From an uncultured Bacteroidales bacterium (GTDB lineage: Bacteria > Bacteroidota > Bacteroidia > Bacteroidales > WCHB1-69), in the NCBI GenBank assembly GCA_905233585.1, contig CAJOFD010000008.1:3077-67076 (forward strand): 64,000 nucleotides of DNA, in the 5' to 3' direction. The notes below the pieces were generated by a model, which searched no databases, was not told the DNA's origin, and saw only the letters and a program-made list of their open reading frames with translations. The translations under genes and the position numbers were made by a program. Shown one piece after another: positions 24,635-57,144 of this stretch (positions within the stretch are counted from its first letter, which is position 1; every line of letters starts with the position of its first letter).

Positions 24635-25537
24635 TTAAAATAAAAATCCTTGTTTTAAGAGTGGTTCTAATCGTTTGTTGGCTAATTTAACATAGTCTTC
24701 ATTTGTGTCATAACCAATAAAATTACGTTTAGATTTCAATGCAGAAACAGCTGTTGTACCGCTTCCCATAAAAGGGTCTAAAATAATATCATCTGTAAAG
24801 GAATATAATTGTATTAATCTATATGGTAATTCTTCTGGGAATGGAGCAGGATGACCTATACGTTTAGCACTTTCGGCATTCATAGTCCAAATGGATTTTG
24901 TCCATTCCATGAATTGTTCTTTCGTAATAGTATTTTCCTTGTCTCGTTTTTCTCTTTTATAGTCTCCCTTTGAAAAAATAAGAATATATTCGTGTACATC
25001 TCTCAAAATTGGATTAGCGGCACTTTGCCAACTACCCCATGCCGTAGATGGACTTGCACTTGCTGCTTTATTCCAAATAATTTCACCTCGCATATTAAAT
25101 CCAATTTTAAGCATTATTTGAGAAACATAATCAGACAAAGGAATGTAGGGTTTTCTCCCTAAATTTGCAACATTTATACATGCTCGTCCTCCATTTACTA
25201 AAACTCGATAAGTTTCTCTAAATGAATTTTCTAGTAAAGTTAAATATTCACTTAAAGACAAATCGTTATCATATTCTTTTGATACATTGTATGGAGGTGA
25301 GGTTATCATCAAATGAACTGAACTATTGGGAATTTCTATCAAATGTTCTGCTGTTCCTACGATAATTTTATTCAGATACTCTAATGGAAATATATTCTCA
25401 TTCTTTTCTACTAAAATCTCTGTCTTTTCCAGCTCTTTATATAATTTAGAATTGTAGAATTTTTCCGAGTTATGATTAATTCTTCCACTTGTTCCAAATG
25501 TACTTGTTGTAGTGCCTTTTTTGGGTATTTTTGCCAT
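24635..25537 (-). CDS. type II DNA methyltransferase, beta-class N4/N6 amino-MTase (SPPY motif, leaning N4-cytosine)
   Basis: 300 aa. Catalytic motif IV (HLMITSPPYNV) precedes the AdoMet motif I (ILDPFMGSGTTAVSA), which is the beta-class order. Confidence 0.8.
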   Translation of the reverse strand: MAKIPKKGTTTSTFGTSGRINHNSEKFYNSKLYKELEKTEILVEKNENIFPLEYLNKIIVGTAEHLIEIPNSSVHLMITSPPYNVSKEYDNDLSLSEYLTLLENSFRETYRVLVNGGRACINVANLGRKPYIPLSDYVSQIMLKIGFNMRGEIIWNKAASASPSTAWGSWQSAANPILRDVHEYILIFSKGDYKREKRDKENTITKEQFMEWTKSIWTMNAESAKRIGHPAPFPEELPYRLIQLYSFTDDIILDPFMGSGTTAVSALKSKRNFIGYDTNEDYVKLANKRLEPLLKQGFLF

Positions 25538-25546
25538 AAAAGATAT

Positions 25547-26404
25547 TTAACGAATTAATGATAAAAACTTTTCTGCTCTTGCTGTATCTGTTTTTTCTTT
25601 ATTTGCAAGAGTAATAATTTTTCCTAAATCTCTTTTACTTATCATTGAAGAAAAATAGTATAAATTATTCTCAACTAAATTTTTCATTAGAGAGGATAAA
25701 GATTTTTCTGTTGAAATAGTAATAAAACCTTTCTGAGGAGTTTCTTTAATAAAATCAGTATCTGTTGGATGTGGATTTAATGATATGAACTGTTGTATAA
25801 CGCCACATTTTTTCAGATAATCAACTTTTTTAACATAATTTGTAGTTATAGGGGAATTACCTAAAATAACAATAGGAATATTCGCACTTTTTTCTCCAGA
25901 AACTCTAATATTAATTGATTTTCCTATAGCTTTTAACATGCTATCGGAACGTAATAAAGATGGTGTTCCTTGGTGAGACTTATAATCACCAAGGAATTTT
26001 ATAGTATTCGGTTTGGTGAATTGATAATTAGATACTATGCTCATTTTTATTTCAAATAGCAATTTAATATCTTTTGCTTCTTGGTTTATTTTATTTTTTG
26101 TGCAAAAAGCTAAATCTGCACTTGTTTTTTGTGTAAGTCCAATTTCTTCACAAACAACACCATTGATAGCGTATAATCCTAATTTTCTTGCGATTGGATG
26201 CAATAAATCTTTGCACCATTTTTCTGTAAATTGCCCAATAAGAGCATTTCTAGATTGTAAGGTTTGTCCCTCTGCATGCATATCTTTAGGAACATATGCA
26301 AATGTGCCTTTTTTTAATTTATAAAACAATTGTTCTGGTGCAGCGAACCCCTTTAATGCTTTTGTAAAAAATTGTTTTTCTGTTTGTGTATTCCAAAATT
26401 CCAT
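25547..26404 (-). CDS. putative type II restriction endonuclease (PD-(D/E)xK-like)
   Basis: 285 aa, 9 nt upstream of the MTase. Candidate catalytic pattern SADLAF...(21 aa)...LLFEIKMS fits D...ExK. No specific enzyme family recognised. Confidence 0.55.
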   Translation of the reverse strand: MEFWNTQTEKQFFTKALKGFAAPEQLFYKLKKGTFAYVPKDMHAEGQTLQSRNALIGQFTEKWCKDLLHPIARKLGLYAINGVVCEEIGLTQKTSADLAFCTKNKINQEAKDIKLLFEIKMSIVSNYQFTKPNTIKFLGDYKSHQGTPSLLRSDSMLKAIGKSINIRVSGEKSANIPIVILGNSPITTNYVKKVDYLKKCGVIQQFISLNPHPTDTDFIKETPQKGFITISTEKSLSSLMKNLVENNLYYFSSMISKRDLGKIITLANKEKTDTARAEKFLSLIR

Positions 26405-44324: not shown

Positions 44325-44356
44325 GATTGGTTATATTTAATTTAATTTTTTTTTGT

Positions 44357-44390
44357 AGAGATGCAGCATGCTGCGTCTCTGCTTTTTTTT
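44357..44390 (+). terminator. Rho-independent terminator after coaE
   Basis: Stem agagatgcag/ctgcgtctct (10 bp, one G-U) around a GCAGCATGCTGC palindrome, followed by gc and T8. Confidence 0.7.
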
Positions 44391-44396
44391 GTAAGG

Positions 44397-44421
44397 GGAC
44401 ACATTGAACGTGTCCGTTTTT
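44397..44421 (+). terminator. second terminator-like hairpin (tandem with previous)
   Basis: GGACAC-attgaac-GTGTCC followed by gTTTTT. Confidence 0.4.
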
Positions 44422-44596
44422 ATACAACTTTCTTTGATGTTATCAAATCAGACGCAGGCAGAGCATCCGATTTTATACAACTTTATTTGGTAAGCCCAAA
44501 GAAATGGTCTTCTGTCAGCCGTTTTTTTGTTCCATATATTAATATATAATGTATAATCATTTTCTGCAATACTGCCAAATCGGCGAAAAACATCAT

Positions 44597-44987
44597 TTGC
44601 TAACGCTTAGCAAGTCCCACTTTTAATAAAATTATATTTGCGGAAAGCTCCGCAAATACTATTTTTTATATTTTTATACTTGCGGAATGTTCCGCAAACA
44701 CTTCTTTTTGTATTTTCATTCTTGCGGGCGACCCGCAAATACTACTTTTTGTATTTTTATACTTGCGGAATGTTCCGCAAACACTTCTTTTTGTATTTTT
44801 GTTCTTGCGGGCGACCCGCAAATACTACTTTTTGTATTTTTATACTTGCGGAGTATTCCGCAAATACTTCTTTTTGTATTTTTGTTCTTGCGGGCGACCC
44901 GCAAATACTACTTTTTATATTTTTATACTTGCGGAGTATTCCGCAAGCACTTCTTTTTGTATTTTTGTTCTTGCGGGCGACCCGCAA
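44597..44987 (+). repeat. tandem array of 10 hairpin-containing 41/42-bp units; two unit types alternate (83-bp super-period)
   Basis: Unit starts are 44597, 44638, 44680, 44722, 44763, 44805, 44846, 44888, 44929 and 44971. Each unit is TTGCGG[A/G]-loop-[T/C]CCGCAA plus a T-rich tail (a[c/t]act[t/a]ctttttgtattttt[g/a]t[t/a]c). Type B (TTGCGGGCGACCCGCAA) is identical in 4 copies. Type A loops vary (aagc, atgt, atgt, gtat, gtat). The first unit is degenerate (TTGCTAAcgcTTAGCAA). Confidence 0.9.
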
Positions 44988-45010
44988 ACATCTAAATATA
45001 AAAAAAACGA

Positions 45011-45040
45011 TACAAAAAAAAGGCAGCCATTTGGCTGCCT
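45011..45040 (-). terminator. Rho-independent terminator of the 4027-aa gene
   Basis: 8-bp stem aggcagcc/ggctgcct with a 4-nt loop (45021-45040), followed on the minus strand by T8. It begins 21 nt past the stop codon. Confidence 0.75.
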
Positions 45041-45060: not shown

Positions 45061-48000
45061 TTATTTTCCGACTGTCATCTTTTTGACAATTTTATGACCA
45101 TTGTATGTCATGGAATAGAAGTATATACCCGCTGCGAGATGTTCGGTATTAAATTCTATGCTGTTTTCACCGCTTTCGGCCATGGTTTCTTCTCTATAGA
45201 TTATCTGTCCTGTAACCGTTGAGATGTTAAACAACACTTTACCCTCTTGTGGAACGGTGTACAATACCTTTGTTTGTCCCGTTGTCGGGTTGGGTATGTT
45301 CTGACTCATACTAATTCCATCAGAATGATTGTCTGTAATGCTCAAGTCGGTGCATTTGCTTACAGGAGCGGCCGTATCGTTGTCGCTGTTGATGTCGCTG
45401 TTGCCCACCAAATAGGCTCGAATGGTGAAATTTGGTACCGCAACCACGGTGAATGCAGGTTGGAATTCGACTTCGGTATAGTCATCGGCATAGATTTCGT
45501 CTATGTTTTCTGTCCAAGAAGCCAGAATATTTCCATCATTGTCCTCAATGGCGGCATAGACATCGACTTGTCGGGCTGAAACGTCAGGATTTTTGTTGGT
45601 AACCTTTATTTTTACATTGAATTGGCTACCGATTCGCATACATTGACCGTCATCGGTGGGAACAAGAATGCCCTCAAGAACCAAATCGTTCAAGTCGATA
45701 CATTCATTAATCACATTTTGGAAACTGAGGTCGGTGTTGCACATCGGATAAACGTTCACCGAAACGTTGTACTGCTCGTCATCTGGAACGGTATAGACCT
45801 TTGTGAAGGTATGGATTTTCTGGGAATCCATTGCCAATACTCCAAAGAGAGTGTCGTATAGCGTTTCCACGACAGCACCGCTCGAATTGGAGACTTCCAG
45901 TTTCAATATCAGGTCTTCCATGTCCATATTGCCGTTGTTGGTAACAGATATCTGCTGCGAAACGGCTCTTCGGGCGGGTATGCAGTTGGTACCGTCCGTT
46001 ATTTTGGTCAATTGTATATCAAGTTGCGGATTGACAACAATTGTGTCGAAACGGACATCGTTGCCGGGTATATTGTCTATGGAATTTACAATATAGCTAT
46101 GGATAAAATAGTTGCCCGGATTGAAATCGAAGCTGCTGTCCAGCAGTAGCGTGTCGCTGTTCAGACCTGCGATAACACCGCTGTCCAACTGAATAACATA
46201 TGATTTTGCCGTTTGACCGCTGACATCAACCTTTAACAGGGTAGGATATTTGCTGAAATCTATGTTTTGGGCTGTGGCGGCGGATATGACTGCCGACAGT
46301 TCTTTCCCTTTATAATCACATGCTGTCAATGTGGGGACAAGCATCTTGTCAATGGCAAGGTCTTGGTTGGAGGTGATGCGTATTCTGTCTATGTATTGTT
46401 CGCCATTGAAAGAATTGTCAGACATTCTCATTGCCTCAAACACCATAACGATACAAGATTGGTTGATGAACGAATCCAGTTTGTAGGTGTATTGTTTCCA
46501 ACCCATGTCCACGCCGTTGTTTTTTCTTACGGAGAACAATGTCTGATAGGTAAGGGCACCGTCAAAGGTTAGACGAATGTCGGTATAATCCAGTGTGCTT
46601 GCATTAGCGGAGGTGTCGTGATAATACCAGAAGTCCAAGACAGGTTCGGAGGAACCGTTCAGGTCTAATTGTTGGGTAAACAAATGGGTCATTTCACCTC
46701 TGTTGCCGTTAAAGGCAATCATCGCATTGCCGAATTGTGGCACAACTGTGCCTGTGGCGTCTGAATCGTGCATCACTGTCCACATATTGGAGCCTATTTC
46801 GGCAATACTTCGTACCGTTGCCGGCATTCCGGCGGCAAAATTCTCGTCCATAGGCAAGATTACTTTGTTAGTGGTGTAAACAACGGACAGTGTGTCATTA
46901 AGGGTGTTGTGGTCATCGCTGTGTTGCAACCATGCTTGCAACAGGTAGTTGCCGGACGGATAGATGTTCAAATTGTTTAACAAGCGGAAGGTGTCCTGTT
47001 TGAGCATCTCCAAACTGCCGCTGTCTATCAGAATGGAGGTGTCCGCTTGTGTTTTCCCACTGACATGCAGATATAAGGTGAGCGGTTGCGTCGCAAAATC
47101 GACGTCCACGCCGCTGCTGTTTTTGACAATTATATCAATGGTAGCAAAGTCCGGTGAGCACATTTCCGTACTGTCGGGCAGACCTTCAATGGCTACTATG
47201 GACAAATCCAAACTGTCGGAAAATATCGGTGTGTAGGCTCCCATGGTTGTTTTCATTTTTCTGACATTGCCTTCGATATCTTGGTTGATACCGACATTGG
47301 GAACAAGCACATCGTAGTAATTGTTCAGCTTGAGGCTTTGACCGGCATTGGCAAAACTAACCGCTATATTGACAGAGTTGTTGTCTTGCATTGTTTTTGT
47401 TCTCAAATCTGCAAATGTAGAGACATTGCTGCCGATGTAAGCCAAATTGTCGTTGGCTCTGAAATTATAATAATTGTTATAATCCATAGTGGTGTTGAAC
47501 GCCGGAGTAGCGTGTGTTGCCGTGCCGACATATACCGCATAACTTGTTGCTGTTTTGTCCGAATTGACCGCAAGGATATTGTTCCTGATGTTCAAATTGC
47601 CTTCGGTGGAGGTTGTAAATTGCAGGGTTCTGACACTGCAGGTGTCTTGTATATAAATACTATTGTGATAGACATCGGCTCTTGAGGGAGAGTAAATGGC
47701 CAGACCTGTAGCGGTAACGCTGTTCACTTCCGCTTTTCTCAACCTGCGTATTTCATTGTTTGCAATCAGACCGTTTTTGTTCGGGTCGGCGGCTCTGGCT
47801 GTAGCGTTAAAGCCGGAGATGTACATACCAGTAGTGCTTCTGCAGCCTTGCAACAGTATTTTGTTGCCGACAATACCGCTGTCCACCGTTACCATAGTCA
47901 TATACATGCCGTATTGTACGGTGGTAACATTGTTTGTGGTTTTTGTTGTAATGTTATTGTAAGCAATGCTGGTGTAAATGGAATTGCCGGTGGAATAAAT

Positions 48001-51000
48001 TCCGGCATAATAAGCGTTTTCCATATTGTTGCTGTCAATGGTAATGCTGCAGGTACGCGTCAATATGTTTGCAGCCGAGCCTGCCGCATAGTTGCAATAG
48101 ATATTGTAATATCCACCGCTTATATTGTTTTTAATAAAACGTACATTGGTCAGCGTTTGGGTGGCTGTGGTAGCATTGTAGTATCTAATACCATTAGAAG
48201 TTGAAGCCGTTGCCGTAGGAGAGGCTTTTATATTACAACCATAAAATTCTACATTGGTAATTTGTCCCAACAATTGTACAGCATTGGAGGCTCTGCTTGC
48301 ATCGAAGGTAACATGGCGGAAATTCATATTGCCAATATTGTTCAGGGTAATGGCATCGCCAAGGTTTGCTATAAAATTGACATCTGCGGCATTGCCCGAT
48401 ATGGAGGTAATGGTAATAGGAGTCGTGTCTGACAAGCCGTTGATGGTTTCAAATTTGAGAACGTCATAGTTGCCATTTGCAAAAGCAAAGGTTGTCGTGT
48501 CTCCTACACCGCAAGTGTTTAATGCCCATCTGAATTCATCTAATGTCGCAAAATCCGATGTGTTTGTTCCGACTGTGTAGTATCCAGCCAATGCTCCGGC
48601 ACAAGCGTAGAATTGGTCGCTGATGGTGTCATTGCTATTGTCATCGTCTGTGCCGCTGCCATTGATGAGACTTATCCATGCCCTTAAGGTATTCAAACCT
48701 GTAGGAGGAACAATATTGCCCAAAGAAATGGTTTCTTGTTGTGTCAATGACAACGCACCTGTCCAATTGACTGCCGGTTGTTGCACACCGTTCAAACTCC
48801 AGTTTATGGTTAGAGTTTTCAGTGTATCGTATCCATTGTTGAATACTTTTACGCTGATAGGATTGGGCTGTTGTACTATAATGGGGTCATAGACGAACTC
48901 TGTTAAAGCGGCATCAGTGTTCGGGAATACGGCATCGTATGCTCCGCAGGCCGTTATCGTGTGCCGTGTAGTTCCCGAAATGTCAGTGAGCACCAGACTA
49001 TCTCTGTCTGTAAGAACATTGCCGTATGCTTTTAGGGTCAAATCTGTGTTTACATCATTGAAGATGGGTTCTACAAATACCGAATTGCTGTCGCTTTGTA
49101 CAACAGTAAGCCAATCTGACAATGTTTGTTTGTCCGAAGAATTTACATAACCGCATTTGGAGGTAGAGAAGTAGGCATTACCGTTGATACGATAGTTGGT
49201 GTCATAAGCGCCTGAATAGGTACCGTTGAAACGGATGGCGTAAGCATTGGTGCCTGTCGCTTTGTTTACAAATAGGTTTTTGCTTACCGTAGCGTCATAG
49301 TTGGCATTGCTATATACATACCACAAGAATGAACTTGAGGTAGTCGTGGTGCCGTCCACATAAACACTATTGTGTAAATAAGAAGTTTGTTTCGGATAAT
49401 CTACATATAATCCATAGGTTGTAGTGGAATACGAGGTAATGCGGAGTTCGTTGTTAGCAATGATATCCTTTGTGGAATAATAGGATCTTAATCCGTACAA
49501 TGTACCGGTAATGGTATTGCTGTTTATTGCAATTTTGTTACCGACAATCTTGCCGCTGTTGCTGTATATTATGTTCATTCCATAGTAGGTTGTTGATGTT
49601 TTTGCCGTTCTGTCAACAATCACCTTATTGTAAGACAGACTTGTTAAATCGGAATAATAGGTGTAAATACCCGAGTAACTATTATTTTTTATCAAGTTGC
49701 TGTCTATAATAATATTTGAACTATATCCATTGCCGGGATAGAGGTAAATACCGTAATATCCATTATGGATTTCACAATTTCTGATGGTTAGACTGTCTAA
49801 TCTGCCCGTAGAACTTGCTTTATAAATACCTATATAAGTAGAAGCGGTCGTATCTTTGGCTAAAATTTTACAATGCTCAAATGTGATATTGTTGGTGTTG
49901 TTCCGGAAATTGACTGCATAACGGTTGTTTCTTGCATCTAACGTAACATCTTTTATAACCAAATTATTAGTCTTTTCTAATGTTAATAGGGACATGGCAT
50001 TTGCTCCTGCATTGAAAACAACACTGTCTTTATTCGCAGCCAAAGATGTAATTGTTAAGGTTTTTCCGCCCATAATTTCTGATAGTCTTGCTAATGTAAC
50101 GCTATCGGTATAGGTACCTGTTTCAAATTTTAGGGTAACATCGTTGGCAACACCGCAACGTATGGCTTCTGTTGCCCAATCTTGCCATGTTGCATAGTCT
50201 GCCGTAGCCGAACTGCCTATGGTGTAATCGCCTGCTATGATAGTATTGCACATATAACGGCTGCTGGTAATGGTGTCGTTGTTGTTAATGGTGTCGCCTG
50301 CCAAAGTAACATAAGCCGATAGTGTATTGATACCTGCAATAAAATTAAGATTGCCAAGGGAAACAGTATCGCTATGTCTATAGGCCAAAGGCGTACTCGG
50401 TGTATAGGCAATAGGTGTTTGAACAACGCCATTGAGCGTATAAGTTATGGTAGCCGATGTTATATCTGTTAGTCCTTTGTTGGTTAAGATTACTGATATT
50501 GGATTCACACCTGCAATGGCTTCATTGAATCCGACAAAGTTTACCAGTTTGGCGTCAATGCTGACAGGCTCGGCTTCATATGCTCCCATAGTAGCCTCGT
50601 CTATACGTGCATTGCCTACAATATCGGTAGGAACACTTCCTATAACCAAAGCATCTAAGGCCGGATTGTTGCGAACAGCCAAGTTGTTGTTGGAGTTGGC
50701 AAACAATGGATCTACATTTACAGAATGTTCATCTTGTTGGGTGTAGGCTCGCAAACTGTCTATATTGTTAGGTAGAGCCTTGCCTACATAACCGATGTTT
50801 GCTCCGTTGGAATAATAGTTGTTGTAATCCAATTTTACTCCATAAGAGGGCAATACATAACTTGCAGTTGAACAATATATAGGATAATTGCTGGCGTTGG
50901 AACTTGTTGCCGCAAAAATATTGTTTTTAATATCTGCACTATAAGAGGAACTCATGGTTGTGATGTACAATGGATAGGATATGCCTGTACCTGTTCCCAA

Positions 51001-54000
51001 TACTGAATTGTGATATATATTCGCTTTGGTATAATTGATATAAATACCATATAATGTTCCCATTTTGAATGCTCTTATTTCATTGTTGGCAATTAAGGCA
51101 TTGTCGGTAGTACCTAAGGTGGAAGCATTCATATAATAGGTATGAATACCATAAGAAGTCGAAGTGCCGTTTAAGGTGATTTTGTTACCTATGATACCGC
51201 TGTCTATTCTGTTGTAACCATAGGTATAAATACCGTATTGGATGCCCGCGATATCGCTTCTGGTAGTAATGGTATTGTAAGAAATGCTCTTGTATCGGTT
51301 GTAATAATAAGAATATATTCCACCCATATAGCCGTTGGTCAAGATATTGCTGTCTATGGTAACACAAGGCAAATTGGCAGCAACGGTTGCCGCACTTGAA
51401 CCGCTATAATACAATTTTATGTTGTAATAACCGCCGTCAATGGTGTTGCGGATAAAACGCACATCTTTCAAATAACTGTTTGCTCCAGATGCACTTGTGT
51501 GGTTTACGGCAATTATAGCATTGCTTATGCTTGTGGTGTTTGTCCTTAATAAACAATTTCTAAATTCAATATCTTCGCAAATACCTGTCATTTCAACAGA
51601 CCCATAACCTCCGACAAAACACATATTGCGGAAATAGATATGTGCAGCACTATTCAAAGTTATGGCAATGCCTGAAACATTGACAATAGCGTCCAAAGAG
51701 TCGCCTGTAATAGGCACGAAAGTGATGGTATTGGTCTTACTTGTACTTGGAATGCTATTAATAACAATAGGTGTTCGGTCTAAATATTGTGGCAAGATAT
51801 GGAATGTTACCGCACTGTCCAATCCACAATAAGTTGCTGCCGATATGGCTTCCTGTATCGTGGTGAAAATGCCTCCCTGACCAACTGTATAAGTGCCGTG
51901 TATTGCTCCGTTGCAACCCCATATATGGGTAGAAACGGTGTCATCGTAAACAAAACCGTCTGCAACATTGTTGGGCATATTGGTAAAAATTACGATTTCA
52001 TTCAAGCCGGATATTATGGTAACATTGGTAAGGGGAACGGTGTCTATGGCACCAGGAGCCAATATGCCTGTCCATGTGTGATTGCTTGTGGTACCGTTGA
52101 CGTTCAGAACAATATTTGTAGAAGTTAATGTGTCCAAACCTCTGTTTTGAATACTTACACTTATTGGATAGGTTTGGCCAGCGGATTCTGCTGGCTGCAG
52201 ACCCAATATTTCCAATGGGGCTACATTGACATGAGGCGTACTATAAGTGTATGCTCCTGCTACTGTTACGAGGCTGTCTCTTGATTCTCCTTCTATGTCG
52301 TCAACTACACTTGACAAGGCAGGAACGGAAATGCCAATGCTGTCCAGTAATTTTAATGAGGTGTTGGGGTTTTGTATGTTGGGCATAACAACAACAGAAC
52401 CGCTATCGGTTGTTACATTGTTTTTCCATGTTGTCAAGTCGGTTGCATAAGATGAATAATAACCAATCTTGTTGTTGGTTAAATTATAATAAACATTGTT
52501 ATTGATGTTGTTGCCTGCCAAATAGGTTGTATTGGTCAAGTAAATAGGGCAGGAGTTGACACCTTCTCCATTGACAACAAAAATGTTATTTTGTATATCA
52601 AAATTTATGCCACTTGCAGATGTGATATAAATACCTCTGGCATTGGCGGTACTTTTCATATATACACTATTGTGATATACTCTGGAACTTGCTGAAGTGG
52701 AGAAATAGATACCGGCGTTGTCCCCGCTTCCGTTGGTGGCGATAATTTCATTGTTGGCAATGAGGAAATCAGGTGTTGTACGGTTGAAATATGCACAATA
52801 AATACCATATTGTACAACATTGCCGATAATTGAGTTGCCAATGATATCGCCTGAACAGTAAGAAGCATAAATACCATTCAACGTAGTTTGTTGAAAATCG
52901 GTTTCACGTTGAACAATTTTATTGTGAGCAATATATGCACTATCACAGTAATACATGTAAATACCATATTTGTCAAAAGTATGAATATAGTTGTTTTCTA
53001 TGTGAAGATTGTTTATGATTTTAGAGGAGGATCCGTAGGCATAAATACCATAACCGCCACCGGAAATGTTATTGTTGGTAATGGTAATATTGGAGGTAGT
53101 TGCCAAATTTGCATATATCCTTATTGCATTATGACTGTTGGTTGTAATGGCAGATGTGAAAAATGGAACTGCAAGTACACAACTGTCTATTGTTATATTT
53201 GAACAACTGTCCCCGATAATGATACTATGTGAATAGGTATAGGTTGAGGAAATAGGAGAGTGTCCTTTCAAGGTTAGATGTTTGAAACAAATATTGGAGA
53301 TGTTTTGTAACATAAAAGGAGCCACTTGGTTGGTTGGTGCCGTTGCTCGTTGGAAGATGACACTGTCTTTGTCCGCAGCGGCAGAGGTAAATGTAATACG
53401 ATAGGTGTTGGCTCCCACAAAGGTATTGCCATTTAAAACAACCTCTTGAAGATAGGTGCCTGTCAAATAAGCTACTTCCAAATCGCCGTTCAAACCACAT
53501 AGATTCAATCTTGTAAGGAAATCCATAGTATTGGCAAAATCTCCTCCGTTCCCAATGGTAATGCGACCATTCAAAGGTACACAAGCAAAGGAAGAGGAAG
53601 AAATGGTGTCGTTTTGCTGATTGTTGTCTGCCCATGTATTGGCATCAAGCCATGCTACAACACTATTAGGTCCATCTGCATATGTAATTGTCCCCAAGTG
53701 GAGGGTGTCTGATTCTTCGGTGGCCAAACTGCCTGTCCATACAATAGGTGTTTGCAGAACATTGTTGATAGTCCAACCGAAAGAAGCGGATTGTAAGGTA
53801 TCTACACCAACATTGGTAATGATGATTGATATGCTGTCTATCGTTCCTTGGCTAACACCATTACGCAATGGGGTGATATAGTTGACCCAAATATCTTTTT
53901 GCAACAATTGGAAACCTTGATAGCAACCCATGGCTGTTATAATATTTCTACGTGCATTTTGTTTGTCTTTCAATACATTTGGCAAACGCATAACATCTAA

Positions 54001-57000
54001 ACCATCATAAACTGCCAATTGTAAAGAAAGGGTTGTATCAAGTAGCGATTTTGTTGAATCCAACAAAGTAACAGTTGTATTAGTAGAGTTCATATCGCCG
54101 TTTACAGCTACTTTCCATGCGTTGAGGTCAGTATAGTTGCTGGATCCAAAACGTCCAATATATGTAGGTGCAGAGTAGTTGTTGTAGTTGATATCATACG
54201 TGGTTGTTGCCACAAGATTGATGGGATAACTTGAACCCGTTGTATTGGTCAAAATAATATTATTGTTGTATATTTTCATAGAAGTGCTACTCGAAGTTGT
54301 AGAATTGCCATACAGACCGACCATATTGGGGGCTCCCGACAAGTAAGCGGAATTGTTGATAATATCAAATTGTCCGTAATTGCAACTTAAACCATAAGAT
54401 ATGGTGGTATTGGTTGTGTTCAATGTGATAATAATTTCATTGTTGGAAAACAAACCTGCTTTTGTTGTACTGTCATTGCCACCATATCTGACATCGTTTA
54501 TGTAGTAGAAATAACCGCCTGATGCATAATTGAGATTGGTATTGATGTTTTGAATATGGTTGCCATCGCATTTGTCTAAATTGACATAATAAACATAAAA
54601 GCCTCTCCAATAAGTTGTAACGGTCAATCCGTTTTTACGACTGAATAGGTTATTGCCCGATAAACTGTTTAAGTGGGCGTAGTACAAATGGATACCTGTT
54701 ATATACGAATTGCTTATTGTATTGTTTTCAATACGAATATTTTGACCATATGCAGCATTACCTGTTCCGGCATAGAAATATATTCCATAATACCCTCCGT
54801 CAATTGTGTTGTTGGTAATGTTTATATTGTTTGCAATGCCTGTACTCGATGTTTTGTAAATGGGAGTAATGGCTGCTGCGTTTGTATTGGGGTCTGATTT
54901 GATGATACAATTGGTAATGGTAACATCGTTGCAGGCACCCTTGAAAATAATACCTTTGGCTTTGTTGGTGCTGGCGTCTATGGTAATGCCGTCAAATACG
55001 ATATTGTTACTGTTATTCAAAATAATAACATTTGAATTGACAGAGGAGGTAACAATGACATCGCTTGGGTTGCCTGTGGCTGATGTGATGGTCAATTTGT
55101 ATCTGCCCATAATATTGCTAAAATTGCTGAAATCCAAACTATCGTTGTAAGTTCCTGCATCTACCAGCAAACGAACATCACCTTGTGGCTGGCAATAAGC
55201 AAAACCTTCAAGAGCTTTTTTTATTGTTGGATATAGTTTGCCATTGCCGATTGGAATATCTCCACTGATAAGATTGTTGCACCCATAAACCATTAATGAC
55301 AGCGTATCGTCAAATGTGGTGGAGTCTGTGATATTGTTGGGATATGCTACCCATGTTACAATGGTGTCAAACTTATTCAACGTAGGGGTGTAGCTTCCAA
55401 TGTTTACGGATGTTTCTGTGTCCCATTCTAAATTACCTGTCCAATTGAACACGGGTTGAACATTTCCATTAATACTATGATACAAATTCGCGGAGGTGAG
55501 TACAGTATCGCCGGTATTTCTTATGTTTACACTGATAGGGGTAAGGTTGCCTGCGATGGCACTGCCATATATCGGAGAGGTTATGGCTGTTAAGGCAACA
55601 GAATTTTTTGCGTATCCCGATGTGGTGGACAAGCCGAAACGTATCAATGGTAGATATTTTTGGCGTGTCCAAGCCGTAGCGGTGCCATTTTTGTAGGCAA
55701 GCCTGTATTGATTGCTTGCCGTATATCGCCATGCTAACAAAGATGTTGATTTGGCGGGGTCTTCCGATTCTATGAATACATACAAATTGTGGTTGGCTGG
55801 AAGTATGAAGGCTTTGGAAAAATCTATTTGATTCCAATATTGTTTGGAACTTGTTTTGCCTTGATATACCAAAGTTGCTCCAATTTCGTCAGGCCTGATA
55901 TCTGTTGTGCTTACTCCCGTATCGGCGGTAGCCATCATCCATACTTTTATCTCTTTGGTTACTTGGTATGAGGCATTGTTACCGTTTGTTACATTGTACC
56001 ATGCCATATTGGCGATATAAAGAGGATTGCTTGTATTGCCCAATTCGGAAGCATAATAAAGTGAACGGCTTCTTGTTGGGCTTTGGCTTGTTGCATAGAC
56101 GACATAGCCGCTTGTCGGTGTTGTAGCCGTGCTGTCGCCCGTACAAACAACATCGGTGATATTCAATATACCGCTATTGGGTTTGACAATATTATATCCT
56201 GATGTAATTGTTGAATTGTTGCCCGTTGTATCTCTACCTGTTATATAATACAAAACATTTGAGTTGGGGGCTATTTGTGGTAATGTTGCTGTCCAAAGAC
56301 TATCGCCGGCATAGGCGGTCATCCTAACGGAATCAGTTGTAGTTGAACTCATATTGCTAACTGTATATACCAAATAAGGAGTTAACAGTGGGGCAGAGGT
56401 ACGTTTGGCTACTTTGGCATTTATGGTATAAGGTCCTGTGCTATAGACTGTACCTTGTACAAATGGCGGTAAAAACTCAACCACAGGCGGTTTTAATTCT
56501 GTATTGGAAGCATAGAGTTGAAAATCATCTATCAACCAACCATAGTTTAGGTTGGTTCCTGTGGTATTGCCTTTTTTGATGATAAAACGGAAGGCAACTT
56601 CGGTAAACGATACTTGATTGGTAATGTCAAAGGTTTCTTCTTTCCACCATGCTTGTGTTGGTATGGCCAATGAGTCGCCTGCTTGCCATTGCACATAACT
56701 TGCCGCACTAAAACCGTTTCTATACTCGCCTGAGCCTTCGTAGGTGTTGGCAGGTATCTCTTGCCATTTGGAACCCATGTCGTTGAGTTTATATTCTATG
56801 CGGACCTCATCTTCGGGGGAAATCTTGCAAATGTGTGAAAATCTCAATGTTACGTATGCGTATGACAGACAATTGTAAAGAGGGGTTTGTAAGACTAAAG
56901 AGTCGTTGGCCGCATTGGGTACTTGACCATGTAGTGATTTGGACCCACTTACGTAATAGTTCGTAGTTTGATTCCACGTTGTGGATTGTGAGGGGGTTAC

Positions 57001-57144
57001 TGAAAACGGATGAGTGGTCCCATCAAAATTTTCATGTACAATTTGCACAATTTGTGCTTCTGCTACGCTTAACAGACAAAACATGCACGCAAAAACGCAT
57101 GCCGACAGTGTCTGTAAGCCTTTTTTGTTGATTAATAGTTTCAT
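45061..57144 (-). CDS. giant (4027 aa) T9SS-sorted surface/secreted protein: MAM-like + 5 x (CARDB-like Ig + right-handed parallel beta-helix) + MAM-like + CARDB-like domains + type A CTD
   Basis: Single uninterrupted ORF. Signal peptide ending SVAEA-QI. PbH1-like repeats (NNxI, GGYYGIY) recur throughout. The periodic landmarks are listed in the module features. The C-terminal 80 aa look like a T9SS sorting domain. Confidence 0.9.
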   Translation of the reverse strand: MKLLINKKGLQTLSACVFACMFCLLSVAEAQIVQIVHENFDGTTHPFSVTPSQSTTWNQTTNYYVSGSKSLHGQVPNAANDSLVLQTPLYNCLSYAYVTLRFSHICKISPEDEVRIEYKLNDMGSKWQEIPANTYEGSGEYRNGFSAASYVQWQAGDSLAIPTQAWWKEETFDITNQVSFTEVAFRFIIKKGNTTGTNLNYGWLIDDFQLYASNTELKPPVVEFLPPFVQGTVYSTGPYTINAKVAKRTSAPLLTPYLVYTVSNMSSTTTDSVRMTAYAGDSLWTATLPQIAPNSNVLYYITGRDTTGNNSTITSGYNIVKPNSGILNITDVVCTGDSTATTPTSGYVVYATSQSPTRSRSLYYASELGNTSNPLYIANMAWYNVTNGNNASYQVTKEIKVWMMATADTGVSTTDIRPDEIGATLVYQGKTSSKQYWNQIDFSKAFILPANHNLYVFIESEDPAKSTSLLAWRYTASNQYRLAYKNGTATAWTRQKYLPLIRFGLSTTSGYAKNSVALTAITSPIYGSAIAGNLTPISVNIRNTGDTVLTSANLYHSINGNVQPVFNWTGNLEWDTETSVNIGSYTPTLNKFDTIVTWVAYPNNITDSTTFDDTLSLMVYGCNNLISGDIPIGNGKLYPTIKKALEGFAYCQPQGDVRLLVDAGTYNDSLDFSNFSNIMGRYKLTITSATGNPSDVIVTSSVNSNVIILNNSNNIVFDGITIDASTNKAKGIIFKGACNDVTITNCIIKSDPNTNAAAITPIYKTSSTGIANNINITNNTIDGGYYGIYFYAGTGNAAYGQNIRIENNTISNSYITGIHLYYAHLNSLSGNNLFSRKNGLTVTTYWRGFYVYYVNLDKCDGNHIQNINTNLNYASGGYFYYINDVRYGGNDSTTKAGLFSNNEIIITLNTTNTTISYGLSCNYGQFDIINNSAYLSGAPNMVGLYGNSTTSSSTSMKIYNNNIILTNTTGSSYPINLVATTTYDINYNNYSAPTYIGRFGSSNYTDLNAWKVAVNGDMNSTNTTVTLLDSTKSLLDTTLSLQLAVYDGLDVMRLPNVLKDKQNARRNIITAMGCYQGFQLLQKDIWVNYITPLRNGVSQGTIDSISIIITNVGVDTLQSASFGWTINNVLQTPIVWTGSLATEESDTLHLGTITYADGPNSVVAWLDANTWADNNQQNDTISSSSFACVPLNGRITIGNGGDFANTMDFLTRLNLCGLNGDLEVAYLTGTYLQEVVLNGNTFVGANTYRITFTSAAADKDSVIFQRATAPTNQVAPFMLQNISNICFKHLTLKGHSPISSTYTYSHSIIIGDSCSNITIDSCVLAVPFFTSAITTNSHNAIRIYANLATTSNITITNNNISGGGYGIYAYGSSSKIINNLHIENNYIHTFDKYGIYMYYCDSAYIAHNKIVQRETDFQQTTLNGIYASYCSGDIIGNSIIGNVVQYGIYCAYFNRTTPDFLIANNEIIATNGSGDNAGIYFSTSASSRVYHNSVYMKSTANARGIYITSASGINFDIQNNIFVVNGEGVNSCPIYLTNTTYLAGNNINNNVYYNLTNNKIGYYSSYATDLTTWKNNVTTDSGSVVVMPNIQNPNTSLKLLDSIGISVPALSSVVDDIEGESRDSLVTVAGAYTYSTPHVNVAPLEILGLQPAESAGQTYPISVSIQNRGLDTLTSTNIVLNVNGTTSNHTWTGILAPGAIDTVPLTNVTIISGLNEIVIFTNMPNNVADGFVYDDTVSTHIWGCNGAIHGTYTVGQGGIFTTIQEAISAATYCGLDSAVTFHILPQYLDRTPIVINSIPSTSKTNTITFVPITGDSLDAIVNVSGIAITLNSAAHIYFRNMCFVGGYGSVEMTGICEDIEFRNCLLRTNTTSISNAIIAVNHTSASGANSYLKDVRFIRNTIDGGYYNIKLYYSGSSAATVAANLPCVTIDSNILTNGYMGGIYSYYYNRYKSISYNTITTRSDIAGIQYGIYTYGYNRIDSGIIGNKITLNGTSTSYGIHTYYMNASTLGTTDNALIANNEIRAFKMGTLYGIYINYTKANIYHNSVLGTGTGISYPLYITTMSSSYSADIKNNIFAATSSNASNYPIYCSTASYVLPSYGVKLDYNNYYSNGANIGYVGKALPNNIDSLRAYTQQDEHSVNVDPLFANSNNNLAVRNNPALDALVIGSVPTDIVGNARIDEATMGAYEAEPVSIDAKLVNFVGFNEAIAGVNPISVILTNKGLTDITSATITYTLNGVVQTPIAYTPSTPLAYRHSDTVSLGNLNFIAGINTLSAYVTLAGDTINNNDTITSSRYMCNTIIAGDYTIGSSATADYATWQDWATEAIRCGVANDVTLKFETGTYTDSVTLARLSEIMGGKTLTITSLAANKDSVVFNAGANAMSLLTLEKTNNLVIKDVTLDARNNRYAVNFRNNTNNITFEHCKILAKDTTASTYIGIYKASSTGRLDSLTIRNCEIHNGYYGIYLYPGNGYSSNIIIDSNLIKNNSYSGIYTYYSDLTSLSYNKVIVDRTAKTSTTYYGMNIIYSNSGKIVGNKIAINSNTITGTLYGLRSYYSTKDIIANNELRITSYSTTTYGLYVDYPKQTSYLHNSVYVDGTTTTSSSFLWYVYSNANYDATVSKNLFVNKATGTNAYAIRFNGTYSGAYDTNYRINGNAYFSTSKCGYVNSSDKQTLSDWLTVVQSDSNSVFVEPIFNDVNTDLTLKAYGNVLTDRDSLVLTDISGTTRHTITACGAYDAVFPNTDAALTEFVYDPIIVQQPNPISVKVFNNGYDTLKTLTINWSLNGVQQPAVNWTGALSLTQQETISLGNIVPPTGLNTLRAWISLINGSGTDDDNSNDTISDQFYACAGALAGYYTVGTNTSDFATLDEFRWALNTCGVGDTTTFAFANGNYDVLKFETINGLSDTTPITITSISGNAADVNFIANLGDAITLNNIGNMNFRHVTFDASRASNAVQLLGQITNVEFYGCNIKASPTATASTSNGIRYYNATTATQTLTNVRFIKNNISGGYYNIYCNYAAGSAANILTRTCSITIDSNNMENAYYAGIYSTGNSIYTSIAYNNITTKTTNNVTTVQYGMYMTMVTVDSGIVGNKILLQGCRSTTGMYISGFNATARAADPNKNGLIANNEIRRLRKAEVNSVTATGLAIYSPSRADVYHNSIYIQDTCSVRTLQFTTSTEGNLNIRNNILAVNSDKTATSYAVYVGTATHATPAFNTTMDYNNYYNFRANDNLAYIGSNVSTFADLRTKTMQDNNSVNIAVSFANAGQSLKLNNYYDVLVPNVGINQDIEGNVRKMKTTMGAYTPIFSDSLDLSIVAIEGLPDSTEMCSPDFATIDIIVKNSSGVDVDFATQPLTLYLHVSGKTQADTSILIDSGSLEMLKQDTFRLLNNLNIYPSGNYLLQAWLQHSDDHNTLNDTLSVVYTTNKVILPMDENFAAGMPATVRSIAEIGSNMWTVMHDSDATGTVVPQFGNAMIAFNGNRGEMTHLFTQQLDLNGSSEPVLDFWYYHDTSANASTLDYTDIRLTFDGALTYQTLFSVRKNNGVDMGWKQYTYKLDSFINQSCIVMVFEAMRMSDNSFNGEQYIDRIRITSNQDLAIDKMLVPTLTACDYKGKELSAVISAATAQNIDFSKYPTLLKVDVSGQTAKSYVIQLDSGVIAGLNSDTLLLDSSFDFNPGNYFIHSYIVNSIDNIPGNDVRFDTIVVNPQLDIQLTKITDGTNCIPARRAVSQQISVTNNGNMDMEDLILKLEVSNSSGAVVETLYDTLFGVLAMDSQKIHTFTKVYTVPDDEQYNVSVNVYPMCNTDLSFQNVINECIDLNDLVLEGILVPTDDGQCMRIGSQFNVKIKVTNKNPDVSARQVDVYAAIEDNDGNILASWTENIDEIYADDYTEVEFQPAFTVVAVPNFTIRAYLVGNSDINSDNDTAAPVSKCTDLSITDNHSDGISMSQNIPNPTTGQTKVLYTVPQEGKVLFNISTVTGQIIYREETMAESGENSIEFNTEHLAAGIYFYSMTYNGHKIVKKMTVGK
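45064..45312 (-). other. T9SS type A C-terminal sorting domain (aa ~3945-4027 of giant protein)
   Basis: SMSQNIPNPTTGQTKVLYTVPQEGKVLFNISTVTGQIIYREE...LAAGIYFYSMTYNGHKIVKKMTVGK, the usual NP-x-x-G...G-x-Y-x-Y...K-x-x-x-x pattern of Por secretion tails. Confidence 0.75.
47230..48912 (-). repeat. protein super-repeat module 5 (aa ~2745-3305)
   Basis: Landmarks NPISVKVFNNGYDTLKT, VNWTGAL, CAGALAGYYTVGTN, SGGYYNIYCNY and TMGAYTP. Confidence 0.7.
48931..50562 (-). repeat. protein super-repeat module 4 (aa ~2195-2738)
   Basis: Landmarks NPISVILTNKGLTDITS, PIAYTPS (degenerate WTG), CNTIIAGDYTIGSS, HNGYYGIYLY and ACGAYDA. Confidence 0.7.
50575..52227 (-). repeat. protein super-repeat module 3 (aa ~1640-2190)
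   Basis: Landmarks YPISVSIQNRGLDTLTS, HTWTGIL, GCNGAIHGTYTVGQGG, IDGGYYNIKLY and TMGAYEA. The codon for E2190 was checked at 50575-50577. Confidence 0.7.
52240..53892 (-). repeat. protein super-repeat module 2 (aa ~1085-1635)
   Basis: Landmarks SISIIITNVGVDTLQS, IVWTGSL, CVPLNGRITIGNGG, SGGGYGIYAY and VAGAYTY. Confidence 0.7.
53920..55602 (-). repeat. protein super-repeat module 1 (aa ~515-1075)
   Basis: Landmarks LTPISVNIRNTGDTVLTS, FNWTGNL, GCNNLISGDIPIGNG, IDGGYYGIYFY and AMGCYQG. Confidence 0.7.
57055..57144 (-). other. Sec signal peptide of giant protein (aa 1-30)
   Basis: MKLLINKKGLQTLSACVFACMFCLLSVAEA|QIV: basic n-region, hydrophobic core and an AxA-like cleavage site. Confidence 0.7.

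Follow-up and report, generated by a model that had tools for sequence, protein, structure and literature searches.

Is the array of palindromes that fills the gap between coaE and a convergent gene for a 4027-aa T9SS protein a device peculiar to this locus, or is it one copy of something more widespread? The array lies in a 64-kb window (the whole stretch of DNA analysed here, 64,000 nt) from an uncultured Bacteroidales bacterium. The first-pass annotation had described ten head-to-tail units of 41 or 42 bp at 44597-44987. Direct reading of the sequence and Tandem Repeats Finder (TRF) bear this out, with units starting at 44597, 44638, 44680, 44722, 44763, 44805, 44846, 44888, 44929, and 44971 (successive spacings of 41, 42, 42, 41, 42, 41, 42, 41, and 42). 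TRF gives a period of 83 with 4.1 copies (96% matches, score 601), and a second solution with a period of 42 and 8.3 copies (79% matches). The pattern TTGCGGR-N3-4-YCCGCAA occurs nine times in the window, always within the array, where 100 shuffles led us to expect no occurrence.

Most details of that description hold as well. The four type B hairpins are identical, the loops of the type A hairpins read AAGC, ATGT, ATGT, GTAT, and GTAT, and the degenerate first unit, TTGCTAA-CGC-TTAGCAA, has a different stem that is still a perfect palindrome. The two unit types had been said to alternate strictly, which is true of the tails, but the hairpins follow the order degenerate, A, A, B, A, B, A, B, A, B, and so alternate strictly only from the third unit onward. 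Nor does the array end at 44987, as an inverted tail at 44988-45011 carries it past the last hairpin. The canonical orientation of the array is the minus strand, and the canonical unit is a 17-18-bp GC-rich palindrome, TTGC-GG[G/A]-loop-[C/T]CC-GCAA, followed by a tail of about 24 nt whose first bases read R-N-N-Y-AAAA. On the minus strand of the window, the tails begin GAACAAAAA or GTATAAAAA. The units and their surroundings are listed below, together with matches to R1, a covariance model that we built from 46 consensus units of arrays at other loci, with the window excluded.

44355..44390, plus strand: intrinsic terminator of coaE, a hairpin at 44355-44382 with a 12-bp stem, then TTTTTTTT; left limit of the gap, outside the repeat.
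44597..44637, minus strand: unit 0, degenerate; TTGCTAA-CGC-TTAGCAA with a divergent tail; arms perfectly complementary, with pairs 5 and 6 unlike those of the family core; undetected by R1.
44638..44679, minus strand: unit 1; A-type hairpin (loop AAGC) with a B-type tail; partial R1 match on the hairpin.
44680..44721, minus strand: unit 2; A-type, TTGCGGA-ATGT-TCCGCAA plus tail; full-length R1 match at 44656-44697 (minus strand), E = 2e-4.
44722..44762, minus strand: unit 3; B-type, TTGCGGG-CGA-CCCGCAA plus tail; units 2 and 3 make up the first AB dimer.
44763..44804, minus strand: unit 4; A-type, loop ATGT; R1 match at 44739-44780 (minus strand), E = 0.002.
44805..44845, minus strand: unit 5; B-type; R1 match at 44783-44821 (minus strand), E = 0.03.
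44846..44887, minus strand: unit 6; A-type, loop GTAT; R1 match at 44822-44863 (minus strand), E = 0.008.
44888..44928, minus strand: unit 7; B-type; R1 match at 44864-44904 (minus strand), E = 0.02.
44929..44970, minus strand: unit 8; A-type, loop GTAT; R1 match at 44905-44946 (minus strand), E = 0.001.
44971..45011, plus strand: terminal inverted unit; its B-type hairpin at 44971-44987 is common to the minus-strand array and the inverted unit, with the tail ACATCTAAATATAAAAAAAACGAT running rightwards; inverted repeat I6.
45021..45040, minus strand: intrinsic terminator of the 4027-aa T9SS gene, an 8-bp stem, then TTTTTTT; right limit of the gap, outside the repeat.

In the canonical register, the tail of unit 2 lies to the left of its hairpin.

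The array had been taken for a possibly locus-specific element of an undescribed kind. Neither part of this view stands. When we scanned metagenomes with a pattern independent of the tail, at least 120 loci matched, and at least 85 of the listed loci, in several Bacteroidales genera, carry arrays of at least three units with the same architecture as the window array. The period is mostly 41-42 bp; among the matches listed plus the window, the commonest spacing is 41 or 42 in most of the 86 arrays. Across this family, the unit is a TTGCGG[G/A]-loop-[C/T]CCGCAA palindrome with a 24-nt lineage-specific tail starting RCRYCAAAA. The hosts include Tannerella serpentiformis, which alone has at least four distinct array loci, Tannerella OT808, Segatella salivae, S. 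oulorum, Prevotella, and Alloprevotella. As to kind, the 41-nt tandem repeats of MITEPgRS and the BrickBuilt elements of Porphyromonas gingivalis have already been published (PMC2575886, PMC4596501). The family itself seems to be uncatalogued: it corresponds to no Rfam family, and six common hairpin strings were absent from 8 million full texts.

The window array shares the features that define this family, namely TTGC-NNN-loop(3-4)-NNN-GCAA with invariant outer TTGC/GCAA, the 41-42-bp period, the asymmetric R-C-R-Y-C-AAAA flank 3' of the palindrome, and a match to R1. Over the 64 kb, R1 reported only units of the array at E <= 0.03, and its best match outside the array had E = 0.36. Within the array there were eight full-length matches on the minus strand (E = 2e-4 to 0.03) and one on the plus strand, the terminal unit at 44971-45011, which is the best match of the window (25.9 bits, E = 7e-6). 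Neither the pattern nor R1 found singleton units elsewhere in the 64 kb, so the window holds one locus only. The closest tail type is that of the S. salivae arrays, which also hold blocks made up of a diverged 41-nt unit whose core pairs poorly.

The genes beside the arrays are unrelated housekeeping genes. Among the matches listed, the flanking genes are divergent at 11 arrays, convergent at 10, and co-directional at 16, and we rejected a fixed placement relative to genes (3'-UTR or promoter) because every orientation class occurs. A linked partner gene was likewise rejected: in an all-against-all clustering of 515 flanking ORFs, no cluster reached more than 7 of the 86 loci, spurious intra-array ORFs aside. 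A separate scan of genome contigs, with a pattern that included the tail of the window array, returned five singletons in Firmicutes and Muribaculaceae MAGs, which we discarded as chance single palindromes. A plasmid or phage origin found no blastn match in PLSDB or INPHARED, and the one "viral" contig (L141) proved to be the chromosomal htpG locus of T. serpentiformis.

We then compared the window locus with its closest relatives. The window has 9 hairpins; six metagenome contigs whose flanks are 99.9-100% identical to its own carry 5, 5, 7, 7, 8, and 5. Multiples of 83 bp separate the 5- and 7-hairpin alleles from the window allele, and the 8-hairpin contig has an internal deletion in one unit. 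Unit number thus varies among near-identical strains (5 to 9 hairpins), the first of two signs, the second being a lack of transcription, that had been named together as the mark of a neutral minisatellite. The same is seen at the GS-Wza locus of T. serpentiformis, which has 2 to 6 units over eight samples. In a sister species (87% CoaE identity), the orthologous gap is 223 bp long and retains only two half-decayed units, none of which R1 detects. Some of the differences in copy number could represent collapse in short-read (k141) assemblies. It could even be asked if the array, or its length, is an artefact of mis-joined or over-expanded repeats, since 83-bp repeats at 96% identity are hard for short-read assemblers, the contigs differ in copy number, and one of them (L010) has a unit with an internal deletion. 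This we find hardly credible: at least five samples yielded seven independent assemblies with the same flanks and order of variant units, the 7-hairpin allele and the 5-hairpin allele were each recovered from separate samples with differences at other positions, and the architecture is repeated at the other loci (at least 85), including on contigs of 1-2 Mb.

[quoted passage not shown] These MITE-borne arrays are bounded by 6-7-bp target-site duplications such as TGTACA, TATGGA, and TACGTA. Inverted repeats of the ACGTGAGTTCGA type are those listed for ISPg3, MITE239, and MITE700 of P. gingivalis (PMC4596501, Table 2). Because arrays elsewhere lie in MITEs with IS5-family repeats and duplications, we infer that the family moves among intergenic sites by means of a transposase acting in trans. 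The window copy itself shows the varying internal repeat number of a MITE with a minisatellite and lacks the ends and the leader and tail. There are no ISPg3-type or ISPg1-type inverted repeats in or near the gap and no target-site duplication, and nhmmer profiles of 18 MITE leaders and 18 MITE tails had no match in the window at E <= 10. The IS5-type ends are absent from the S. salivae arrays as well. We counted it against a minisatellite or MITE reading that the window copy has no inverted repeats, target-site duplication, or leader or tail homology.

The palindromes also recall REP/BIME-type elements, whose units would spread as single-stranded hairpins through a RAYT (an IS200/IS605-like Y1 transposase) encoded elsewhere in the genome. 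The resemblance lies in the short GC-rich palindrome, whose stem has A/T at its first two positions, in the conserved unpaired flank on one side, which in a minority of lineages is GCGTC and so resembles the CGTC-tagged REPs of Bacteroidetes that have no dedicated transposase (PMC3733652), and in the terminal unit of the window, which forms one head-to-head pair. That pair is the sole inverted junction; the other eight of the nine are head-to-tail with a fixed 24-nt spacer, and BIMEs are built head-to-head and tail-to-tail (PMC3733652), so the suggestion of a BIME fails on organization. The flank is GAAC/GTAT in the window, with no GTAG/CGTC tag, and is not CGTC in most lineages, and a 7-bp stem with a 3-4-nt loop compares with 8-9 bp and 4-5 nt in CGTC REPs. 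Singleton copies are absent from the 64 kb. A Pfam scan of 38 window ORFs revealed no transposase, RAYT, or cas gene, the recurrent neighbors of the 86 arrays included no RAYT or Y1 transposase, and the mobility that is visible (inverted repeats, target-site duplications) is of the DDE/IS5 kind. We therefore regard a REP/BIME origin as very improbable. CRISPR had been excluded at the outset, and rightly: the tails are 79-96% identical to each other, and there are no cas domains in the window.

We also considered what the gap might encode. The array was said to lie outside the terminators of both convergent genes, and terminator-like hairpins are indeed present on both sides. It was also said to hold no credible ORF. 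This is correct in that we detected no protein homologues and no coding signal, but the plus strand is free of stops in all frames, and ORFs of 134, 102, and 95 aa therefore run across the array. Related arrays do not share these open frames, and in the closest subtype both strands contain stops. Given this, the lack of homologues, and a period of 83 bp that is not a multiple of 3, we rejected a coding array despite its three open plus-strand frames.

Alternatively, the array could be transcribed independently, from the minus (canonical) or the plus strand, as a multi-hairpin ncRNA, which could serve an RNA-binding protein as a sponge or a scaffold. Both strands do fold far better than shuffled sequences (z = -13.3 and -12.0), although low fold energy is a trivial outcome of perfect palindromes. 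GC<->AU double changes at stem pairs 5 and 7 are compensatory, but no more than 2 of 7 pairs vary, in units related by descent. On the canonical strand, G.T intermediates exceed A.C intermediates (20 vs 9 units, 4 vs 2 types), a weak hint of strand-specific pairing, and the related BrickBuilt of P. gingivalis has bidirectional promoter activity (PMC4596501). Set against these observations, the best Rfam match over the window array scored 30 bits against a threshold of 78, and 13 related loci gave no array match at threshold. No promoter or terminator is conserved at array borders across loci. In the window, the array is beyond the terminators of both neighbors, and no sigma-70-type promoter pointing into it was matched. 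For the Bacteroidetes -33/-7 promoter, for which we read the units by eye, TATTTTTG occurs in the A-type tails, but no suitably spaced TTTG accompanies it. Together with the unstable copy number, this makes an ncRNA a long shot.

The idea that dyad symmetry is maintained was upheld across the family: 282 of 352 tail-anchored units have 7/7 pairs. The outer TTGC...GCAA is invariant, changes in the interior are symmetric, and an A-tract lies at a fixed offset past the palindrome. The 17-bp palindrome and RCRYCAAAA are conserved across Prevotellaceae, Tannerellaceae, and this uncultured lineage, and many family hairpins take the form of a perfect 8+1+8 palindrome, for instance TTGCGGAA-C-TTCCGCAA. 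The tails diverge by about 50% across the family while the period stays at 41-42 bp. Conservation of the palindrome, flank, and period despite the divergence of the tails looks like constraint by a binding protein or structure, not pure drift, and we counted it against a minisatellite.

One form of such constraint would be a dimeric DNA-binding protein, conserved in Bacteroidales, for which the palindromes are phased sites; it could nucleate a nucleoprotein structure, be titrated by the array, or insulate the convergent genes. With one palindrome per 41.5 bp, about four helical turns, all of them would lie on one face of the DNA. The invariant outer bases and symmetric interior changes, the period that most arrays keep, and the A-tract all fit this reading, and 8+1+8 palindromes are better suited to recognition as duplex DNA than as RNA hairpins whose loop would be 1 nt. 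But no gene is consistently linked to the arrays, the 64 kb has no single-copy palindromes to act as ordinary operators, and the arrays occupy every intergenic context. Strains whose flanks are identical differ in copy number (2 to 9), the site has decayed in the sister species, the S. salivae arrays include the diverged unit whose core is poorly paired, and hairpin-templated correction also predicts symmetric changes. We consider binding sites of this sort rather improbable. A broader proposal, also unlikely in our judgment, is that the palindrome and RCRYCAAAA at four-turn spacing form the recognition module of a putative conserved Bacteroidales factor that binds DNA, RNA, or ssDNA hairpins, in which case the arrays would be functional platforms (for nucleoid organization, titration, or insulation) merely picked up and spread by MITEs.

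Altogether, the array is probably a variable-number tandem repeat, a hairpin minisatellite, of a Bacteroidales-wide family akin to MITEPgRS and BrickBuilt. Since it is one copy of a widespread family, with a unit number that varies among strains, and since such arrays often sit within small transposable elements, we regard it as most likely selfish or neutral DNA rather than a device specific to the locus. Non-autonomous MITEs would carry arrays between intergenic sites, using a transposase supplied in trans. At the window locus, an 83-bp AB dimer derived from two diverged units appears to have been amplified recently, with dimers presumably gained and lost by replication slippage or unequal recombination, which the hairpin-forming palindromes probably favor. 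We propose that the palindrome stays intact while the tails drift because the units that keep it are those that are multiplied or homogenized. A dedicated cellular function at this locus is most likely lacking, while the array may incidentally affect termination or insulation between the convergent genes, or the local shape of the DNA.

This interpretation turns an apparently unique device in the window into one copy of a repeat family, present in several genera of oral Bacteroidales as well as in an uncultured lineage, and the neighboring genes need no special explanation. Such arrays break or collapse short-read assemblies, and they are also ready-made VNTR markers with which strains could be separated in metagenomes. 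The family joins MITE biology of the P. gingivalis type with a deeply conserved palindrome, whose putative binding partner could be a transposase or a host factor.

How does the family compare with known systems? One comparison is with the BOX elements of Streptococcus pneumoniae, intergenic repeats of a modular, MITE-like build (boxA-boxB(n)-boxC), in which the 45-nt middle module is present in variable tandem number. As here, they have predicted stable hairpins and no transposase of their own. They differ in belonging to another phylum, in their unrelated sequence, and in a small boxB number of 0 to about 8; they are co-transcribed with neighboring genes and have documented effects on expression.

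REP/BIME elements and CGTC-tagged REPs share with the family short extragenic GC-rich palindromes that have a conserved unpaired flank and are sometimes clustered, and CGTC REPs are present in Bacteroidetes with no dedicated transposase (PMC3733652). Their clusters are head-to-head or tail-to-tail with variable linkers, REP dimers being predominantly head-to-head and tandem head-to-tail dimers rare to negligible or absent (Di Nocera et al. 2013, PMC3733652). They are thus mosaics, in contrast to the strict head-to-tail 41-bp organization here; the tag, stem, and loop lengths differ, and no RAYT was seen here.

The closer parallels are in P. gingivalis. BrickBuilt has 19 copies, always intergenic, with a strain-dependent repeat number of 1 to about 23 (PMC4596501). 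Like the MITE-borne arrays, it consists of a leader, a tandem block, and a tail with short IS5-type inverted repeats, and, like the window copy, many of its copies are missing one or both ends. Its unit is 23 nt long, unrelated in sequence, and not described as a conserved palindrome, and its promoter activity was shown experimentally (PMC4596501). MITEPgRS, also called MITE464 (Naito et al. 2008, PMC2575886; Klein et al. 2015, PMC4596501), has a 41-nt repeat for which Klein et al. found no BLAST match outside P. gingivalis (PMC4596501). Its ends are of the ISPg1 type (GAGACTGTTGCA), as opposed to the ISPg3 type (ACGTGAGTTCGA) of the MITE-borne arrays, and the window copy is without ends. In other respects the two are alike: MITEPgRS is an intergenic, non-coding, multicopy element of a member of the Bacteroidales (PMC2575886, PMC4596501), it has IS5-family inverted repeats as the MITE-borne arrays do, and it contains internal tandem direct repeats with a stated length of 41 nt (Repeat C), which resemble the present unit in length. 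The number of these repeats varies between copies, up to 14, and the central repeats are flanked by other repeat types, just as in the S. salivae arrays.

We located the ten unit starts at 44597, 44638, 44680, 44722, 44763, 44805, 44846, 44888, 44929 and 44971, a spacing of 41 or 42 bp. Tandem Repeats Finder resolved two periods, 83 bp (4.1 copies, 96% matches) and 42 bp (8.3 copies, 79%); the ten units and their spacing are as described in the first-pass annotation. All nine matches to TTGCGGR-N3-4-YCCGCAA in the 64 kb fall within the array, and 100 shuffles produced none. The hairpin order is degenerate, A, A, B, A, B, A, B, A, B, so the strict alternation of A and B reported earlier holds for the tails but not for the hairpins. 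Nor does the array end at 44987, as had been thought: the repeat runs on to 45011 as an inverted unit. Terminator-like hairpins bracket the array, which does lie outside the terminators of both flanking genes.

44355-44382, + strand: terminator-like hairpin of coaE, the array's left bracket
44971-45011, + strand: inverted unit using the array's last hairpin (inverted repeat and family-model match)
45040-45021, - strand: terminator-like hairpin of the 4027-aa gene, the array's right bracket
45061-57144, - strand: 4027-aa protein, right-handed beta-helix repeats and T9SS C-terminal sorting domain

The gap had also been called free of ORFs. Because the + strand is free of stop codons in all three frames across the array, ORFs of 134, 102 and 95 aa do cross it; we rejected all three as genes. 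At least 277 ORFs have been spuriously called across such arrays in the protein collection.

When reference genomes were scanned with a pattern containing the tail of the window's own units, the only matches were five chance singletons. With the tail sequence left free and two hairpins required 22-26 nt apart, the pattern matched at least 120 metagenome-contig loci and 8 viral-contig loci. Among the matches listed, arrays of at least three units were found at 85 loci in addition to the window, with up to 19 units and a commonest spacing of 41 or 42 bp. The idea that the array might be locus-specific thus falls, as the same hairpin and tail architecture occurs at at least 85 other loci. Tails are alike within one array and about half different between lineages, and for every array there is an orientation in which the tail, 3' of the palindrome, starts with R-C-R-Y-C-A-A-A-A. 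In this canonical orientation, TTGC, G6, C12, GCAA and A24-A25 are invariant among 42 distinct consensus units. Within arrays, variation is highest directly 3' of the hairpin, in the first three bases and over R-C-R-Y-C as a whole (41-nt unit positions 18-22), and it consists almost solely of transitions (GCGTC, GCATC, GCACC, GCGCC, ACGCC); deamination of a methylated CpG or GCGC sequence is one possible cause. When units were picked by tail alone, which removes selection on the palindrome, all seven pairs were intact in 282 of 352 units; control 18-mers centre on two pairs. GC<->AU double changes occur at stem pairs 5 and 7. We built a covariance model on 46 consensus units, the window contributing none, and in the 64 kb it found matches only in the array: eight full-length - strand matches had E-values of 2e-4 to 0.03, and a single + strand match, at 44971-45011, had E = 7e-6. 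Because this window-free model matches the array only, and mostly on the - strand, the array is a member of the hairpin-repeat family, with minus as its canonical strand.

Host names were obtained from exact look-ups of flanking proteins. Tannerella serpentiformis carries at least four array loci (GS-Wza, glnS/DUF368, a carboxylase and htpG) and Segatella salivae at least two; Tannerella sp. oral taxon 808, Segatella oulorum, Prevotella sp. and Alloprevotella are further hosts. The flanking genes are unrelated housekeeping genes in every class of orientation, no neighbour gene recurs among the arrays beyond one locus sampled repeatedly, and a search of plasmids and phages gave no match. The T. 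serpentiformis htpG locus (L141), on a contig listed as viral in IMG/VR, has a group II intron domain (RF02012, 120 bits) at 11581-11728 as fetched, ~600 bp from its composite hairpin array.

Among the matches listed, 18 arrays are bracketed by ACGTGAGTTCGA and TCGAACTCACGT, and in canonical orientation the left repeat ACGTGAGTTCGA lies upstream in every case. Between the ends and the array come a leader (48-133 nt) and a tail segment (81-168 nt), and direct duplications of 6-7 bp surround these arrays (TGTACA, TATGGA, TCCATA, TACGTA, TAAGCA, TAAGGA, TAAATAC). Inverted repeats with 6-7-bp duplications are the signature of transposition, and the same inverted repeats are tabulated for ISPg3, MITE239 and MITE700 of P. 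gingivalis, of the IS5 family (PMC4596501). In other genomes, then, the family spreads as cargo of IS5-type MITEs. In the complete elements, these inverted repeats are 12 bp long, the leader and tail are conserved, the 41/42-bp hairpin array inside varies in length, and the target-site duplications of 6-7 bp mostly read T....A. Arrays without IS5-type ends include those of S. salivae, whose tails are nearest to the window's; in them, TTGCGGGAGGCCCGCAA-unit blocks stand next to blocks of another 41-nt unit, TTTCGCCGAGCGCGGAAATGCCAAACCATTCGGGAAATGAC, which has a homologous tail and a weakly palindromic, poorly paired core. Searches of the window found no IS5-type ends and no homology to the MITE leader or tail.

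Loci L023, L027, L028, L038, L039, L053, L054, L082, L100, L109, L114, L118, L129, L136 and L148: complete MITEs, 375-650 bp, in Tannerella and related oral Bacteroidales
L106 2565-3113 and L121 11480-11960 (canonical orientation): S. salivae composite arrays

At array loci such as L065, L094 and L136, tails ending in ...GAGAC give a unit junction in which ...CGAGAGAC is followed directly by TTGCGGG. By eye, GAGAC-TTGC resembles the IS5-type end GAGACnnTTGCA of ISPg1, MITEPgRS and BrickBuilt minus two bases. This could hint at derivation of the hairpin unit from a transposon end.

An identical CoaE is encoded on six metagenome contigs; for ~0.9 kb to either side of the array, their flanks match the window at 99.9-100% identity. 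Comparing unit number between these near-identical strains, as the first-pass annotation had proposed, gave 5, 5, 7, 7, 8 and 5 hairpins (a range of 5-8) against 9 in the window, the degenerate first unit left out. Whole 83-bp dimers separate the 5- and 7-hairpin alleles from the window, and each of these alleles was found again in different samples with other point differences. Short-read collapse could account for part of this variation, but the recurrence of the same alleles in different samples speaks for much of it being real. The T. serpentiformis GS-Wza locus likewise ranges from 2 to 6 units across eight further samples. Unit number changes locally, and would do so by slippage or unequal recombination.

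Close relatives of the CoaE are few (89%, 87% and 67% identity, all Bacteroidales MAGs). In GCA_017618435.1 (87%), the syntenic gap is 223 bp and holds two half-decayed units (...ATGTTCCGCAA-23 nt-TTGCGGAGTATTTAGTAA...); the family model found no unit at this locus or in the 89% relative. Because the sister gap has decayed units only and the relatives lack a family-model match, the window array is a lineage-specific expansion of a repeat that the sister species is losing at the same site.

The window itself is a chromosomal housekeeping stretch from an uncultured member of the Bacteroidales, with a GC content of about 35-44%. To the left of the array are ftsK, lolA, an Omp85 protein gene and coaE; to the right, the gene for the 4027-aa beta-helix protein with its T9SS sorting domain is followed by ispF, porV and porU. 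The 30 further ORFs scanned are all ordinary genes without transposase, RAYT or cas domains, which bears out the reported absence of cas genes. In the sister species, the orthologue of the 4027-aa gene is interrupted by contig ends, with called fragments of ~1900 aa. Between the coaE terminator and the array, 44397-44560 contains a hairpin, GGACACATTGAACGTGTCC, a duplicated motif, TTTTATACAACTTT[C/A]TTTG, and an AT-rich palindromic block, CCATATATTAATATATAATGTA, and an imperfect inverted repeat pairs 44429-44448 with 44485-44504. The CCATATATTAATATATAATGTA block is kept in both sister species (contigs L012, ~4660-4685, and L020, ~800-830), in a different order relative to neighbouring motifs. 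The GC minimum of the window (0.305) is at 24635-26404, where a methylase gene and a neighbouring ORF may form a small restriction-modification island.

81-482, - strand: small stand-alone HIRAN-domain protein, 133 aa
24635-25537, - strand: N6/N4 DNA methylase gene, adjoining the 285-aa ORF
25547-26404, - strand: 285-aa ORF, no Pfam match

Altogether, the array is best supported as a hairpin minisatellite of a Bacteroidales repeat family, of a MITE-associated or orphan kind. It probably has no dedicated function at this locus, since it is polymorphic between strains, is decaying in the sister species, and has neither a linked gene nor a positional preference. This reading does not explain well the deep conservation of the palindrome, the one-sided flank, or the 41-42-bp period across families. 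The amplification or transposition machinery could require such features, or they could stem from a putative binding factor. They are what a functional binding platform has in its favor, a reading that we consider improbable in view of the same polymorphism and decay; that the array encodes a structured transcript seems more doubtful still. The array is real and its first description sound, yet it is neither unique nor unprecedented, and its value lies mainly in the uncatalogued cross-genus family and its conserved core.

A REP/BIME mosaic differs from the hairpin array in organization, as REP dimers are head-to-head or tail-to-tail, with tandem dimers negligible (PMC3733652). Closer are two P. 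gingivalis elements, precedents in kind for an array that the first-pass annotation did not recognise as a described Bacteroidota element. MITEPgRS (MITE464), described by Naito et al. 2008, has ISPg1-type ends enclosing repeats A and B, carries Repeat C in up to 14 tandem copies, and numbers ~20 copies in a genome (PMC2575886); Klein et al. 2015 give 41 nt as the length of its tandem repeats (PMC4596501). Likened by description rather than by the sequence of Repeat C, the TTGCGG-hairpin family is plausibly identical with the MITEPgRS family. BrickBuilt, the second such MITE, contains a 23-nt minisatellite and shows bidirectional promoter activity; it is always intergenic and strain-variable, and one end or both are often missing (PMC4596501).
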